From NCBI GenBank assembly GCA_965199825.1, contig OZ241329.1:800001-864000 (forward strand): 64,000 bases of DNA, read 5' to 3'. Positions 4,218 through 54,167 of this stretch are shown here, piece by piece. The position numbers and the translations under genes are program-made. Within the stretch, counting starts at the first letter, position 1; the number at the start of each line of letters is the position of its first letter. Source of the stretch: Bdellovibrionales bacterium. GTDB lineage: Bacteria > Bdellovibrionota > Bdellovibrionia > Bdellovibrionales > UBA1609. The notes beneath the pieces are model-generated. The model searched no databases. It was not told the origin of the DNA and saw nothing but the letters and a program-made list of their open reading frames with translations.

Positions 4218-5042
4218 CTAGTGGCTATTCTGATGGTGGGCACGATGATGCCCCGAACAAAGAATTGTTAGGTTATCTAGTTCGTTCGTCCCGCCTTCTA
4301 ATATCGGTTTGATATGATGAATATCAATATGTCGCCGCTGCTGGCAGCGCACGCCGTTTTCATCAACATGCATGCATTGACTAGCGCATTTGTGCTGAAC
4401 TTGACGCTTGAGGATGACAGTCATTTTTTGTGAGCCAGTTTTCACAGGTGGGCACGATTTTTTTAGTGGGTCGTTTTTTGATAAAGCGGTTCGGGTGTTA
4501 TCTACCATCGTTTCTTGAATCGTTGCCGCGTGTCCTAATCGCTGACTCAAAAGATCACGCGAGCGTTCGAAGTCTTTAAATTCTTCCAAAGTCATAGCAA
4601 ACCGGATGTCCACTTGGAGTTCATCCCCCGCGTTATAAAGTCGTGCACGCTCTTTGAGTTTTTTTGCGGGTGAGGCTTTTGCCACTTCTTTTTCGAGAGC
4701 ACGCTTGGAGCCCTGTGCAAGTTTCAACCAATGTTCGGCATTTTTAGGAGTGATCACACTGCAAATTCGATTGGCTTTGGAGATCGAAAGTTGGCCCGAC
4801 GCAATTTGTGATTTGAGCTGTGGAATGACGGCACATTTTTTAGCAATTTTATTAAAAATGCTGGTGAGCTCTTCAGACATATTAAGTTTGTTGCAAGTAA
4901 AATCAAAAAGTGATCGACATCCATAAACGTAATGGGTTTTTGCTCGCCAAACATTTTCTATTGATAAGACCAATTCAACATCTGAAATATTTTTGGCCGA
5001 CACAGCTTTGAGTGCTCGAGAATAAATTTTTTGATGATCCAC
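4218..5042 (-). CDS. HNH endonuclease (paralog 1, most divergent copy)
   Basis: C-terminal CxH..RC..RRHIDIHHIKP..GG....NLTILCSGHHRAHH HNH domain; N-terminus homologous to the ORFs at 27474 and 41266 (YGCRSLF motif); RBS AAATAGGAG before GTG. Confidence 0.88.
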   Translation of the reverse strand: MDHQKIYSRALKAVSAKNISDVELVLSIENVWRAKTHYVYGCRSLFDFTCNKLNMSEELTSIFNKIAKKCAVIPQLKSQIASGQLSISKANRICSVITPKNAEHWLKLAQGSKRALEKEVAKASPAKKLKERARLYNAGDELQVDIRFAMTLEEFKDFERSRDLLSQRLGHAATIQETMVDNTRTALSKNDPLKKSCPPVKTGSQKMTVILKRQVQHKCASQCMHVDENGVRCQQRRHIDIHHIKPILEGGTNELDNLTILCSGHHRAHHQNSH

Positions 5043-5134
5043 AATTCGCTCCTATTTAATAAAGCGAAATATATCATAAAAAATATGCGCTGCAAATTGA
5101 TATAAATAAATATTGTAGGTTATTTCTCAAGCGA

Positions 5135-5360
5135 AATTTCCGGCGGTGATATTATCTTTATCAAAAGTTTGAGCGGGCACGATACTTGATCGCTAATTCA
5201 AACCGAAACATTTCGCACACCAGTAGACAGCGCTAGCCCTGGTTACAAATCATAGATGATAAAAACGGTGTGGTTTGTTATTCAACCGAAAAAATGATTT
5301 CGTGCATGAAGGTGAAATAAGATATTGGAAAATGTCGCTCAAGCGAGCGGGCACGATCAC
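5135..5360 (+). repeat. HNH-1 leader with GCGGGCACGA motif copies
   Basis: GCGGGCACGA at 5173 and 5347, plus accessory AATTTCCGGCGG at 5135, within a non-coding AT-rich 410-bp gap upstream of HNH-1. Confidence 0.75.
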
Positions 5361-5454
5361 CGCTACTCATAGATCAGGAATGAAGATCCTGAAAAGCGAG
5401 TTCGGCTTGGCATAAGATTGCGAAAGCAATCGAATGTCTGAGCTTTTAAGCATC

Positions 5455-8902: not shown

Positions 8903-9785
8903 GTGGGCACGACAACTTACTGCGGGCACGACAACTTACTTGCGGACACGATAACTTACTTGCGGACACGATAACTTACTTGCGGACACGATAACTTACT
9001 TGCGGACACGATAACTTACTTGCGGACACGATAACTTACTTGCGGACACGATAACTTACTTGCGGACACGATAACTTACTTGCGGACACGATAACTTACT
9101 TGCGGGCACGATAACTTACTTGCGGGCACGACAACTTACTTGCGGGCACGACAACTTACTTGCGGGCACGACAACTTACTTGCGGGCACGACAACTTACT
9201 TGCGGGCACGACAACTTACTTGCGGGCACGACAACTTACTTGCGGGCACGACAACTTACTTGCGGGCACGACAACTTACTTGCGGGCACGACAACTTACT
9301 TGCGGGCACGACAACTTACTTGCGGGCACGACAACTTACTTGCGGGCACGACAACTTACTTGCGGGCACGACAACTTACTTGCGGGCACGACAACTTACT
9401 TGCGGGCACGACAACTTACTTGCGGGCACGACAACTTACTTGCGGGCACGATCACTTACTTGCGGGCACGATCACTTACTTGCGGGCACGATCACTTACT
9501 TGCGGGCACGATCACTTACTTGCGGGCACGATCACTTACTTGCGGGCACGACAACTTACTTGCGGGCACGACAACTTACTTGCGGGCACGACAACTTACT
9601 TGCGGGCACGATCACTTACTTGCGGGCACGATCACTTACTTGCGGGCACGATCACTTACTTGCGGGCACGATCACTTACTTGCGGGCACGATCACTTACT
9701 TGCGGGCACGATCACTTACTTGCGGGCACGATCACTTACTTGCGGGCACGATCACTTACTGTGGGCACGACAACTTACTTGCGGC
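8903..9785 (+). repeat. 20-bp tandem repeat array (consensus TGCGGGCACGACAACTTACT), 42 full units plus two terminal variant units
   Basis: Read directly. 8921-9760 is 42 x 20 bp in variant blocks: B x1, A (GGACACGATAA) x8, hybrid x1, B (GACAA) x16, C (GATCA) x5, B x3, C x8. An identical 19-mer GTGGGCACGACAACTTACT sits at 8903 and 9761. Confidence 0.97.
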
Positions 9786-26431: not shown

Positions 26432-26749
26432 ACTTTCGTTATCGGTTGAGGCGGATCAAAATGTTACAGGACCTTCAGACATATTTTCTTACGGCATAAC
26501 AATTGATCACTAGCTGTTGGGGTTGGGATTTGCTAAAGTGGAATCTGTTCTTGTGGACTGAAGACAACGTAAATCCTATAAAGAATATTTATGGGGCCTG
26601 TCCCTGGGGATGGTGTGCATGCTCAACTTCGCATTGAGAAGCCTAAAGTTCCTATTATGGGCACCCACTTTAAAAAACATGGGTTTTGCGGATCGATCAG
26701 TTCCACAAGAATTTTTTTTTGCCCTTGGGTGGTTTTCGTTTGTTGGGTT

Positions 26750-27264
26750 TCGTGCCCGCTTTTTTTTGGGCGGTTGAGTTTGTCGTGCCCACATCTTTAT
26801 TTGATTGGCCGAAAAAATCTTTGTTTTTAAAAAGTTTGGTGTTTGTGGAACCATTTCCTTTTTTTGCCTGGCGTGGATTTGAAGCTAAAAATTTTGTCGT
26901 GCCCCCTTTGTGTTTCGGTTGGGCCGAAGTTTTTCGTGACCGTCTTTAGATTCATTAGAGCGAATTTTTTTGTTGTGCCCATTCCTTTAAATCAAATGGA
27001 ATCTTTGTTTTTAGAAGTTTGGTATTTTGTAGGATCATTTAATTGTCATGTTCGGATTTTGTTGGTGGCCGAAGTCTGTCGTGCCCGCCTTGAGATTGTT
27101 TTTTTGTCGTGCCCGCTTCTTAAAATCATAAGGAATTTTTTGTTCTTAGAAGTTTGGTGATTTATAGGAGACTTTACTTTTCTTACCCAGCGCAGATTTA
27201 AACCTAAAGAATTTTGTCGTGCCCATCTTTAGATTCATGAGACCGAATTTTTTGTCGTGCCCGC
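26750..27264 (+). repeat. HNH-2 leader: TTTTGTCGTGCCC(GC) repeat field with higher-order 134-184 bp units
   Basis: Exact TCGTGCCC at 26750, 26783, 26897, 27079, 27107, 27217 and 27255; one-mismatch copies at 26934 and 26973. An AATCTTTGTTTTTAGAAGTTTGGT-like block recurs at 26816, 27000 and 27134. Confidence 0.9.
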
Positions 27265-27473
27265 ACAAATTTTCTTGACGGGATTTTGTTATTGCTTAAA
27301 TGGCCCTGGCTTCTATTTTCAAGCCAAATACCCTTTTTCTGCTCCAAATCATCTCGCAGACATCACCAAGCTCAACAAAGACGCCAACAAATGAACCTGT
27401 GATTCACATCCGACAAGCTGTAAAAATGAAAGATTAGAAACCCGTGGTAATCTCCTCTAAATAGGAGATATTT

Positions 27474-28316
27474 ATGGATCATTCAAAAATTCATCTCAAT
27501 GCGTTGACCGCTGCTGATGCTCATCGCAAAACCGAAATGGAATTGCTCAATGCTTTAGAGCTTGTTTGGAAAAACAAAACCTTTTCGCAATATGGTTGCC
27601 GATCGTTGTTTGAATATTCAACCAAACACCTCAAATTATCCGAAGAGATGGCAAGTATTGTAAACAAAATTGCAAAAAAATTTACTGAACTTCCTGAACT
27701 TAAAGCAGGCATGGAGTCTGGTGAACTTTCACTCTCAAAAGCGAATCGAATCACTGCGGTTGTCACAAAAGAAAATGTGGATCACTGGATGAATTTGGCC
27801 AAGGGCACCAAACGCAATCTCGAAAAACAAATTTCCATGGTCCAACCCGAGAAAGCAATTCCGGAGCGGGCACGACATCAAAAAGCGGGCGACACTTTAC
27901 GAGTCGCGATTTCTTATTCGATGACTCAAGAGGAATTTGCAATGTTTGAACGGACACAAGATCTTTTGAGCCAAAAATTAAAGCGACCGGCCTCGATCGG
28001 TGATGTTCATCTTGCAGCTCTTAAAGAGCTCCAGCAAAAGCTCGACCCGTTAGAAAAACCGATTCGCCAAAAATCAGCGGGCACGACAAAATTGACCATC
28101 GCACTAAAGCGAAAAATCCATCACAACCTGAAAAGTCAGTGCAGTCATATTGATCAATCCGGCGAGCGTTGCCCCGCGCGACGCCACCTTGATGTTCATC
28201 ACATCATTCCTAAATCGCAAGGCGGATCAGATAACGAAGAAAACCTGACCCTTTTATGTTCAGGACATCATCGTGCTCACCATCGAAAGGCTAGGAACTC
28301 CCAAAAAGCGTTTTGA
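27474..28316 (+). CDS. HNH endonuclease (paralog 2, full length)
   Basis: C-terminal CSHIDQSGERCPARRHLDVHHIIPKSQGGSDNEENLTLLCSGHHRAHH; RBS AAATAGGAG; homologous to the ORFs at 4218 and 40598. Confidence 0.9.
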   Translation: MDHSKIHLNALTAADAHRKTEMELLNALELVWKNKTFSQYGCRSLFEYSTKHLKLSEEMASIVNKIAKKFTELPELKAGMESGELSLSKANRITAVVTKENVDHWMNLAKGTKRNLEKQISMVQPEKAIPERARHQKAGDTLRVAISYSMTQEEFAMFERTQDLLSQKLKRPASIGDVHLAALKELQQKLDPLEKPIRQKSAGTTKLTIALKRKIHHNLKSQCSHIDQSGERCPARRHLDVHHIIPKSQGGSDNEENLTLLCSGHHRAHHRKARNSQKAF

Positions 28317-40597: not shown

Positions 40598-41266
40598 TCA
40601 ACCGGTTTTTTCCGCTCTGTGATGGGCACGATGATGTCCGCTGCATAAAAGCGTCAGATTTTGTTCTATGTTTGTGCCGCCTTGTGATCGTGGGATGATA
40701 TGATGAATATCAAGATGACGGCGTTCAGTGCATCTAATGCCGTCTGCATCTTTGAATGTGCATTGACTGTTATGAACTTGATGAAGTTTTCGCTTAAGAG
40801 TGATGGTCAATTTTGTCGTGCCCGCTGATTTCTGATGTATCGGTTTTTTCAACGGATCAAGTTTTTGTTGCAACTCTTCAAGAGCTGCAAGATGAACCTC
40901 ACTGATCGAGGCTGGCCGCTTTAATTTTTGGCTTAAGAGATCTTGTGTCCGTTCAAACATTGCGAATTCTTCTTGGGTCATCGAATAAGAAATCGCAACT
41001 CGTAAAGTGTCGCCCGCTTTTTGATATCGTGCCCGTTCAGGAATTGCTTTTTCGGGTTGGACCTTTGCGATTTTATTTACAATACTTGCCATCTCTTCGG
41101 AAAGTTTTAATTCCTTGGTCGAATATTCAAAAAGCGAACGACAACCGTACTGAGAAAATGTTTTATTTTTCCAAACGAGCCCAAGCGCATTGAGCAATTC
41201 CATTTCAGATTTGCGATGAGTGTCGGCCGCTTTCTTTGCTTCGAAATGAATTTGAGAATGATTCAT
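40598..41266 (-). CDS. HNH endonuclease (paralog 3, in-frame internal deletion of 54 aa relative to paralog 2)
   Basis: Start MNHSQIHF at 41266 with RBS AACAGGAG; long identical stretches with 27474-28316; intact HNH motif RCTERRHLDIHHIIPRSQGG...NLTLLCSGHHRAHH. Confidence 0.85.
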   Translation of the reverse strand: MNHSQIHFEAKKAADTHRKSEMELLNALGLVWKNKTFSQYGCRSLFEYSTKELKLSEEMASIVNKIAKVQPEKAIPERARYQKAGDTLRVAISYSMTQEEFAMFERTQDLLSQKLKRPASISEVHLAALEELQQKLDPLKKPIHQKSAGTTKLTITLKRKLHQVHNSQCTFKDADGIRCTERRHLDIHHIIPRSQGGTNIEQNLTLLCSGHHRAHHRAEKTG

Positions 41267-41498
41267 AAATTTCTCCTGTTTTTGTGAGGAGTGTAACATG
41301 AGTTTTGCGAGTGCGTTTTTATGGATGGCGAAAATCAATATTAGTCGGTCGAATTTCACAGGTGATTTGGCTCTAGCAGCGCTTGGAGAGGTCATCGCAG
41401 CAAAAAAGTAGAAAATGTTTAGTAATCGCGATACAGGTCAAATGAGCGAGCAAAAAAACACGTCAATAAAAATATGATTCGTGGAAGATTTTAATTTG

Positions 41499-41706
41499 GG
41501 AGGCACGACAAAATCTCCGGCGGTTTTAAAATTGAGTTTGATTTAAAAACACTGGGCAACACAACTAAGCTTTTTTGATTCAACGAAGTTTCTAACATTA
41601 CTAGTTTCATCGTTTATAAAAATAATCTGGATTATTTAAGCGGGCACGACAAAATCCCCAATAATCAAAATTAAATGTAATTCTAAATCAACGGGCACGA
41701 TAACTT
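41499..41706 (+). repeat. HNH-3 leader with GGGCACGA motif copies
   Basis: AGGCACGACAAAATCTCCGGCGG (41501), GGGCAAC (41554), GCGGGCACGACAAAAT (41640), CGGGCACGATAACTT (41692). Confidence 0.8.
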
Positions 41707-53141: not shown

Positions 53142-53684
53142 TTACCCTGCGGTTTTTTTAAAGAAATCCCGCCAATACTCTTTACAACTTTTCTCAAAAT
53201 GTTTGCGAGCGGCTTTTCCAAAGTGCGCTTGAATTAAATTTGCTTCTAAATAATCAAACATGCGAGTTACGTCTCGCCCTTTAGTGATGATGCGAGTGAA
53301 AAGAACCGAATCCCAAAAACGCCCGAACCTTTTTCCTTTTTTTGCACGAACAGTTATTCGTGCGATCACTCCCGCAACAACTCTAAAAAAAGTTTTAACC
53401 AGGGCACGGTCTTGAAACCGAATGATGAGGTGAAAATGGTTGCTCACATTGCTGTAAGCCGCAATACCTACCCCATACTTTTTAGCTTTAGAAAAAATTA
53501 AATTTTTATACTTGATCTGCATATCAAATTTTTTGAAACTTTGGTCACCCTTGGCATGCTGAGATTTAAGAATGACGTGGTGCAAACGCTTTTTGTCTAA
53601 CGGACGCACGGTTTTCCGACGACCTTTCATTTGTCCACCATATGATTTTTGTTTTGATAAATTAAAAAGTGGCAGCTGTTTCAT
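53142..53684 (-). mobile_element. Y1/HUH transposase (IS200/REP-associated tyrosine transposase-like)
   Basis: HHVILKS strand, HUH motif SNHFHL, RFW and DYLEAN catalytic Tyr; 180 aa; no tnpB next to it. Confidence 0.85.
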
Positions 53685-53730: not shown

Positions 53731-54167
53731 GAGTAATATCATTTTACTTGAGGAAAAAGTTGATTTCTTTCGTGCTCGATTCAATCCTAGGTTCGGTCAG
53801 GGCAATGTCATTTTCTTTGAGTAAATCTTTACTAAATTTATATTTTACTGCGCGATCCGAGGCTCGATCGAGGGCAATTTTATTTTGTTTAAATAAACCG
53901 TATTAACAATTTGATTTCTTCTTGCTCGATTCCTTTTCAGATTCGGTCAGGGCAATGTCATTTTTTTTAATAAAACTTTATTGAGTTTATTTCTGTCCTA
54001 ATGAAGCCAACGCCAGGCTCGGTCAGGGCAATGTCATTTTCTTTAAAGCGTTTTAACGAATCTAATCCCTTGTGCTCCTACCAATCATAGGCTCGGTGGG
54101 GCAATGTCATTTTGTTCAATCAATATCTATTTTCCTCACCATCATTTCGGTCGAAGTAATATCATTT
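53731..54167 (+). repeat. Direct-repeat field TCGGTCAGGGCAATGTCATTTT, ~75-bp period, upstream of the Y1 transposase
   Basis: Exact copies at 53793, 53943 and 54019; variants at 53864, 54093 and 54147; partial copy at 53731. Confidence 0.9.

Follow-up and report, generated by a model that had tools for sequence, protein, structure and literature searches.

Recurrence of a short site in the leaders and reading frames of a multicopy HNH gene family with a predicted ParB-like domain and a putative split promoter

The window analysed here, a stretch of 64,000 nucleotides from a Bdellovibrionales bacterium (contig C1 of genome G000, G000:C1:800001-864000; 2.84 Mb and 44% GC for the genome), contains three genes for HNH proteins. 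HNH-1 (4218..5042, minus strand) encodes 274 amino acids and belongs to a divergent branch, HNH-2 (27474..28316, plus strand) is intact and encodes 280 amino acids, and HNH-3 (40598..41266, minus strand) encodes 222 amino acids with a predicted ParB-like helix-turn-helix (HTH), a predicted ribbon-helix-helix (RHH), and an HNH domain that is identified by Pfam (PF01844). The start codon of HNH-3 is placed at 41266, replacing 41395. Compared to HNH-2, HNH-3 has an in-frame deletion of 162 bp near 41060 that removes approximately residues 69–122 and takes out the predicted specificity helix, and HNH-3 is likely a passenger copy in which half of the predicted DNA-binding domain is lost. All three genes are members of a multicopy, dispersed family with 28 paralogous loci in G000 (45–85% identity to HNH-2). 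The family is present in 66 of 201 genomes of the phylum, where the proteins are only 22–40% identical across genomes, and a search of G000 that used the relatives as queries found no second HNH family. The closest homologues with a name come from Bdellovibrionales, which suggests Bdellovibrionota as the phylum. The small contigs of G000 have a GC content of 36% to 39%. A repeat of ~57 bp lies upstream of HNH-1 (window 5385-5436) and is also found by two broken copies and four times near C1:983 kb; these other occurrences lie at C1:799352-799409, 982869-984566, and 1029672-1029740.

The HNH domain is matched by Pfam PF01844 at 27–37 bits, above a cut-off of 21.4, and residues C223, C233, H242, H243, N257, C262, H265, and H266 are invariant within it, which retains both the His-Asn-His residues and the cysteines for zinc. 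By sequence it resembles McrA, the En domain of group II introns, and IscB, and the corresponding domain of the structure model scores a Z of 7.5. In AlphaFold models (pLDDT 83.9 and 91.7) the HNH domain follows a low-confidence linker. When the N-terminal model was compared with 48,161 chains, the top four were KorB, ParB-parS, KorB-operator, and Spo0J (Z of 7.1, 6.9, 6.5, and 6.2; rmsd 2.8–3.1 Å over 90–96 residues), and residues 144–197 match RHH proteins (Z of 4.2–4.8); no Z-score here, that of the HNH domain included, reaches 8, and according to the comparison tool such values are frequent among helical proteins. A profile search of the PDB with the N-terminal sequence returned no ParB, Pfam HTH_ParB was matched in only 2 of 29 members (E of 0.011 or worse), and Foldseek gave no match for the whole model at E 0.001. 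The N-terminus contains no CTPase (ParB/Srx) domain; residues 3–33 form one helix, with no Pfam match. From these models, the protein is predicted to have three domains, of the ParB/KorB-like DNA-binding, ribbon-helix-helix, and HNH nuclease types. PF02720 was found neither in the three window proteins nor, for 29 members, among the 25 of 30 Pfam families listed, Pfam finds no RuvC domain in the 280-residue protein, and PF01797 (Y1) does not match the element protein.

The short site that recurs at these genes, GGGCACGA, is the commonest GC-rich 8-mer of G000, with 522 copies; 200 of its anagrams reach at most 179 copies, with a median of 39. Each leader has between 1 and 26 copies, all reading TCGTGCCC and mostly ending 220–350 bp before the ATG. 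At HNH-3 (minus strand) these are a proximal copy with one mismatch at 41501..41508, a distal copy at 41639..41655 (core 41642-41649), and a further copy at 41693-41700, while the HNH-2 leader (26750..27262, plus strand) contains seven exact copies (26750, 26783, 26897, 27079, 27107, 27217, and 27255) and the HNH-1 leader has copies at 5175 and 5349 on the minus strand. Within the genes, the site occupies fixed places at codons 131–134, in the linker, and at the last His codons. In HNH-3 these are the ERAR copy (41027..41034) and the linker or AGTT copy (40810..40826, core 40816-40823), which are inverted relative to the leader copies, and the HHRAH copy (40624..40631), which is direct (all on the minus strand). 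The corresponding copies are found at 27868, 28079, and 28271 (variant) in HNH-2, and at 4238, 4450 (KKSCP), and 4641 (degenerate) in HNH-1. An earlier reading of the window from sequence only had placed the motif at 11 positions, and the motif or its variant is present at each of them. That reading also described a long inverted repeat at HNH-3. Region 40810-40826 is indeed the exact reverse complement of 41639-41655, with a match that stops at 17 bp, and exact complements of the 15-mer at 28077 are located at 27102, 27250, and 40811; the term is nevertheless overstated, as the genome contains 11 occurrences of this 17-mer, which therefore represents the consensus of the site and not a private pair of one leader and one gene.

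Several other short sequences accompany the leader copies. A second recurring leader motif of the type CACC-n-CCGGAR, to which we assign no role, lies at 41512..41527 (minus strand) and occurs in ~20 places in C1, in both orientations and near site clusters, and a third motif resembling GAACGAAGGTA is often found immediately ahead of arrays. In a contig of a related strain (run X3, depth 3.9), 28 bp are absent between adjacent leader copies (window 27077-27104). A 6S RNA gene (window 26544-26716), the only Rfam match in the window, is located immediately 5' of the HNH-2 leader.

The proposal that the in-gene copies are constrained at the level of the nucleic acid is borne out by a comparison of 25 paralogues, an alignment that leaves out HNH-3, one truncated copy, and one fragment. 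The motif codons are nearly fixed at their silent positions: H266, R267, and A268 each use a single codon in 25/25, 25/25, and 24/25 genes, and R267 is CGT in all 25, as compared to the five or six codons used for the invariant residues R213, R232, and R237. On a tree built without the motif codons, the five testable motif columns show 2, 1, 1, 0, and 1 silent changes; the 63 comparable non-motif columns show 3–14 changes on the same tree. The excess synonymous conservation that the earlier reading had set as a check is thus found at the in-gene sites, at 0–2 changes versus a median of 8.

One explanation put forward for this constraint was pairing between leader and coding-sequence RNA, which would control the translation of a toxic nuclease. 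Perfect complements of 15–17 nt do exist, and both window cases rank near the top; the HNH-3 leader matches its own gene over 17 nt and is beaten by just 1 of 26 foreign leaders. Over all loci, however, foreign leaders match the in-gene copies as well as own leaders do, with no excess in any of four site classes (p 0.12–0.82). The own and foreign values are 12.15 and 11.81 nt for the ERAR copy (n = 20, p = 0.32), 12.73 and 12.52 for the AGTT copy (n = 11, p = 0.82), and −37.3 and −36.7 for the duplex energy (n = 10, p = 0.77). Additionally, the −10 box lies 25–31 nt before the ATG, which puts the leader copies beyond the 5' end of the predicted mRNA; the predicted start site is ~17 nt before the ATG, and the leader copies are 200 nt or more upstream of the predicted transcript. 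The proximal leader and spacer show no conserved RNA or single-stranded DNA fold (folding z near 0 over 24 segments; alifold 0.0 in three families), and no Rfam family was found at the HNH leaders within the window. We consider control by RNA pairing to be very improbable.

The orientation of the in-gene copies provides a second line of evidence. Of the 27 loci that cover its position, 21 have the ERAR copy, and all 26 full-length loci have the HHRAH copy. The linker copy differs between clades in both orientation and place: of the 25 aligned genes, 13 have the direct, KKSCP-type copy, 9 have the inverted, AGTT-type copy, which sits 20 bp beyond the KKSCP position, 1 has both, and 2 have neither. 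Three of 26 genes in G000 lack any inverted copy. This linker flip, together with the three genes without an inverted copy, suggests a site that is tolerant of orientation, and protein dimers probably bind it either way round.

These same observations leave the earlier proposal of a regulated inversion switch unsupported in G000, where none of the 28 loci is in an inverted state and Pfam finds no recombinase domain in the unit. A search of Logan contigs from 4 runs for 9 joints returned neither inversion joints nor a 150-bp deletion that would collapse the promoter, although such contigs lose rare variants and their silence is thus no evidence of absence. The part of the proposal that stands comes from the relatives, which contain fossil junctions linking leader sites with in-gene sites in an inverted arrangement; judging from these sequences, strand exchange between the two has happened there. 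An inverted copy of the 3' part is present in the left flank of 25 of 109 loci in relatives, some of which share only the palindrome and short flanks or contain another repeat. Terminal inverted repeats are absent from G000 and inverted ends of 70–100 bp are found in G129 and G217; no long inverted flanks were seen in G000.

A reading built on these traces is that the sites are points of recombination or template switching that act through the DNA complementarity of leader and in-gene copies, in which case the leader copy would originate by inverted duplication of the in-gene copy and protein binding would be secondary. The junction of the inverted flank falls at the center of the site in G015 L054 and L069; in L166 and L032 it likewise falls at the site. 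Where a central asymmetry reveals its orientation, the leader copy is mostly inverted (G082, G129 L190/L191, G217). In L068, L166, L173, and L193 the inverted flank best matches its own gene, although this is so in only 7 of 19 tested loci out of the 25. The equal match of own and foreign leaders in G000 argues against this, as do the direct linker sites in 13/25 genes, the genes without an inverted copy, the 0/28 inverted loci, and the lack of a recombinase domain in the element, and we regard this reading as unlikely. Of the options that were offered for the in-gene copies, self-recognition sites that mark a mobile unit are the best supported.

The extent of such a unit can be seen in the eight closest paralogue pairs, which share sequence from approximately −217..−263 to +805..+809, with one pair extending to +853. 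This ~1.04-kb unit begins near the proximal leader copy and ends shortly after the HHRAH copy, ~5–14 bp beyond it in HNH-3, so that the site is found at both of its margins. No empty site was found and no target duplication among the G000 paralogues was convincing, and the ends are therefore drawn from paralogue pairs only. In one pair the last ~170 codons are identical and the upstream part differs, a pattern that, from the sequences, is a 3'-anchored conversion tract. The match of the copy at C1:798481 ends immediately past its KKSCP site. The site is also the building block of tandem arrays. One stand-alone array in the window (8905..9784, plus strand) consists of 44 units of 20 bp with one site per unit, 18 of the 27 tandem arrays in C1 are built around the site with units of 16–38 bp, and all 15 C1 arrays with a TRF score of 200 or more carry it. 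Nine large site arrays lie away from HNH genes. Read by eye, the borders of the arrays vary and show no fixed cut phase. Contig C5 of G000 carries duplicated arrays of 60 bp and 21 bp that are unrelated to GGGCACGA.

Relatives in other genomes lack GGGCACGA, yet have palindromes of their own at the same position in the linker (40/69 relatives' linkers versus 26/176 control windows). The linker palindrome is also present in the locus's own leader in 17 of 81 loci (13 or more of 16 matches), and the other 64 have no good leader copy within 450 bp upstream; the palindromes were picked automatically, with a wrong pick in some of the 81 loci. Within one genome, the leader and linker palindromes change together (G142 L151; G082 L171/L174), and different sites are found on different element clades in G142, G082, G036, and G219. 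These palindromes of 12–20 bp resemble the parS/NBS consensus quoted in PMC7383237. The G000 site differs from a ParB-type palindrome in that it is asymmetric. In three loci of G142 (L149, L156, L157) a small element with terminal inverted repeats is inserted at the center of the palindrome, in leaders as well as linkers. In G082 L172–L177 the family's own palindrome lies near the center of a 167-bp spacer in 5/6 loci, and several of the G131 loci L159–L168, whose HNH genes are without the split promoter described below, have an ATACAT..ATGTAT palindrome right before the ribosome site.

In KorB and SopB, specificity is carried by the helix around the counterpart of residue 113. In a table of 43 sites with classes assigned by eye, K or R occupies position 113 in 13 of the 16 loci whose site is CCRG-centered and in 4 of 27 others. 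The link has a median p of 0.005 with one locus per genome; an independent-pairs test offers 5 pairs only (2.9 in the same direction, 0.6 opposite, p 0.6), and column 124 scores as high as residue 113 against site class. The G000 proteins stand outside this table, and all 25 combine K113 with a TGCCCG site, as the rule predicts.

The number and spread of the copies could also be explained by a host-encoded repressor or nucleoid factor that reads the site, silencing the elements or being exploited by them, in which case the HNH protein would not be the reader. The 522 copies and the nine large arrays away from HNH genes fit with this idea, as does the array that adjoins an IS200-like gene, and the occurrence of the split promoter at unrelated enzymes makes some host input likely. 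The coexistence of different sites on different element clades of a single genome (the four named above) is difficult to explain by one host reader, and the center of the site tracks an element residue (113). We judge a host reader improbable.

We place a probability of roughly two in three on the motif being a double-stranded DNA binding site for the element's own protein, one that marks the ends of the unit and likely represses it. The same probability applies to the reading as a whole, in which the placement and silent constraint of the site, the extent of the unit, and the geometry of the promoter are observed, the fold is predicted, and binding, repression, nicking, mobility, and use of the loop are what we infer. 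A dimer of the protein would bind its own site in the leader and in the gene, and there is an even chance that bridged leader and in-gene copies loop the promoter region and hold the nuclease gene off, by analogy to in-gene auxiliary operators. The HNH domain, on its flexible linker, could reach a few bases from a bound site; that it nicks there and that host repair then copies the unit is a proposal we rate slightly below even. Such repair would copy the ~1.04-kb unit and convert paralogues from the 3' end, and might also generate the site-centered arrays and, in relatives, the inverted duplications. Expression from the split promoter would be further gated by a loop, with a host factor or the state of the DNA as its trigger.

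Elements of this arrangement have precedents, namely in-gene operators and multicopy HNH genes. The REP13E12/DUF222-HNH proteins of actinobacteria (PF02720 + PF01844) are also multicopy, with a helical N-terminus and a C-terminal HNH; their PF02720 domain is unmatched in the proteins described here, but is found in two distant homologues and in 12% of the members of an Atlas look-alike cluster. DUF222/REP13E12 are listed as repetitive elements in PMC10589994, and the literature searched gave no mechanism, self-site, or promoter geometry for them. ParB, Noc, and KorB, with their parS, NBS, and OB sites, may share the predicted DNA-binding fold, have palindromes like those of the relatives, and may switch specificity through a few residues, possibly as here. 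Unlike them, the element protein lacks a CTPase domain and is fused to an RHH and an HNH domain, and its site is located inside its own reading frame and is asymmetric in G000. The lac O2 operator is an auxiliary operator inside a coding sequence, and operators of this type likewise have upstream and in-gene copies that are kept by silent-site constraint; the difference is that the inferred reader here is the gene's own nuclease, and that the sites coincide with the ends of the unit. REP/RAYT systems (IS200-like Y1) likewise have an abundant short repeat clustered at an enzyme gene with arrays elsewhere, and the Y1 genes of related genomes have the split promoter too, whereas here the enzyme is HNH rather than HUH, the G000 site forms no hairpin, and copies lie in the gene. 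HNH homing endonucleases and IscB/OMEGA (HEARO) are also selfish HNH genes with a sequence match in the HNH domain. The present family differs in having no intron or intein host, no RuvC, and no nearby RNA family, and in occupying many dispersed loci with a self-site.

Upstream of HNH-3, an extended −10-like box (TG-n-TACACT, 41290..41295) is separated by a 165-bp spacer of fixed length (17 + 148 bp, 41296..41460), which shows no conserved fold, from a −35-like box (TTGACG, 41461..41466) that is followed by a T tract (all minus strand). HNH-2 has the same arrangement at 27275..27453 on the plus strand (TTGACG at 27275-27280, 167-bp spacer, TAATCT at 27448-27453), and HNH-1 has an ordinary promoter-like pair (5068..5095, minus strand; TTGCAG, 16 bp, TATATT). 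In 25 of 27 G000 loci, TTGAC is located 165–168 bp before a TG-n-TA-n-n-n-T box. A weight-matrix scan of G000 finds strong pairs at this distance solely at HNH genes. Across 152 loci of 42 genomes, 99 loci in 28 genomes have the split geometry, with spacers of 163–168 bp in 63, 171–175 bp in 6, and 179–186 bp in 30, and 53 loci are without it; by the same criterion, the geometry precedes just 6 of 1699 G000 genes used as controls. The counts include related loci and are not independent, although the proteins are only 22–40% identical across genomes. A further 11 of 30 loci in five more genomes pass the rule, including the complete genomes G099, G156, and G177, which are of the same order. Both boxes of a sigma-70 promoter are thus present, but 163–186 bp apart rather than at the usual 16–18 bp, and a TTG box with 4 or more matches at 15–19 bp is found in only 2 of 78 split loci.

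The spacer lengths are near 17 bp plus 14, 15, or 16 turns of 10.5 bp (164, 174.5, and 185 bp). The spacers of G000 align with hardly a gap, at 46% identity, and the distance from TTGAC to the −10 box (165–168 bp) is tighter than that from TTGAC to the ATG (198–204 bp). There is a T tract after TTGAC and an A tract ahead of the −10 box; if 150 bp were removed, the tracts would abut and 17 bp would remain. A ~10-bp periodicity of A/T tracts within the spacer is weak and inconsistent. In G142, the −10 box lies 12 nt before the ATG in 8/8 loci, without a ribosome site, and a spacing of 12 nt is typical of leaderless transcripts. From its sequence context, the −10 box of the split promoter looks real.

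Whether the boxes form a single split sigma-70-type promoter that fires only with its ~148–168-bp spacer looped or wrapped out is a question on which we stand at even odds. An alternative is that the extended −10 is self-sufficient and that TTGAC-nnn-TTTT is the far end of a rigid nucleoprotein complex, such as an activator site or an element end that resembles a −35 box. TG-extended −10 boxes can function without a −35, the T tract and the A tract at the two ends of the spacer mirror each other, and two spacer classes are common with the 15-turn class rare (6/99), all of which are compatible with this alternative. It accounts less well for the tighter locking of TTGAC to the −10 box than to the ATG in G000, for the exact 17 bp left when 150 bp are taken away, and for the related branches that lack the long spacer (L131, L136, L138, and HNH-1), which have a TTGAC or TTG box at 15–17 bp. 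We consider this alternative unlikely, if less so than those concerning the site itself.

A search that started from the DNA pattern gave 43 matches in 18 of 151 genomes, versus 7 with the reversed pattern. Among the 30 matches listed, 17 precede the HNH family, 7 precede IS200-like genes, and 6 neither, and the four IS200-like genes tested behind the split geometry were all above the PF01797 cut-off. The 184-bp pattern gave 12 matches versus 5 controls, with 3 at HNH genes, 3 at genes that look IS200-like, and 6 that are neither or cut off. As two unrelated enzymes have the same geometry, the HNH protein is unlikely to be the trigger. Within G000, there is no split promoter at the 17 IS200-like genes, no convincing one at non-HNH genes, and no collapsed 17-bp form.

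Promoters whose activity depends on the state or looping of DNA are known, such as the single-stranded Frpo promoters and the looped sigma-54/IHF promoters. The arrangement seen here has no stem-loop in the spacer, unlike Frpo, and it is the two sigma-70 boxes themselves that are apart, rather than an enhancer from a core promoter, unlike sigma-54/IHF. If it works as one promoter, this conserved split promoter belongs to no known class, and a literature search that included few subscription papers found no account of the element or of the geometry. Tentatively, we propose a new class of promoter in which one sigma-70 holoenzyme would span 14–16 extra turns and gate HNH and HUH enzymes on host chromatin or supercoiling, with the HNH element as a new type of transposon that has parS-like sites in its own frame and is copied by site-directed nicking. 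If true, sigma-70 boxes that work across a loop of ~150–170 bp would break the 17-bp rule, and the split promoter would report directly on how DNA is wrapped, or on its topology, in bacteria that bear histones. The element also suggests how multicopy HNH genes, which are very common and unexplained, may move and restrain themselves. The family is also a natural collection in which ParB-like domains are matched to differing sites, and it could provide small site-specific nickases with a readable code if nicking occurs as proposed.

The loop length of ~148–168 bp is nucleosome-sized, in a phylum that bears histones, and G000 has a 64-residue histone-like open reading frame (G000:C1:1011473-1011670; PF00808 at E 0.007, below the Pfam cut-off). 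Histones are described as major chromatin components in Bdellovibrio (PMC10627809), and they are reported to bend or coat DNA and not to wrap it (PMC11789641), which makes a histone wrap only one option for the spacer. In the window, tblastn locates an IS200-like (Y1) gene at 53142-53684 on the minus strand with a leader at 53758-54131, one of the 17 in G000. Its leader repeats a different asymmetric site, GACATTGCCC, which is found in the leaders of 11 of these 17 genes, and has no split promoter, in what appears to be a parallel self-site design.
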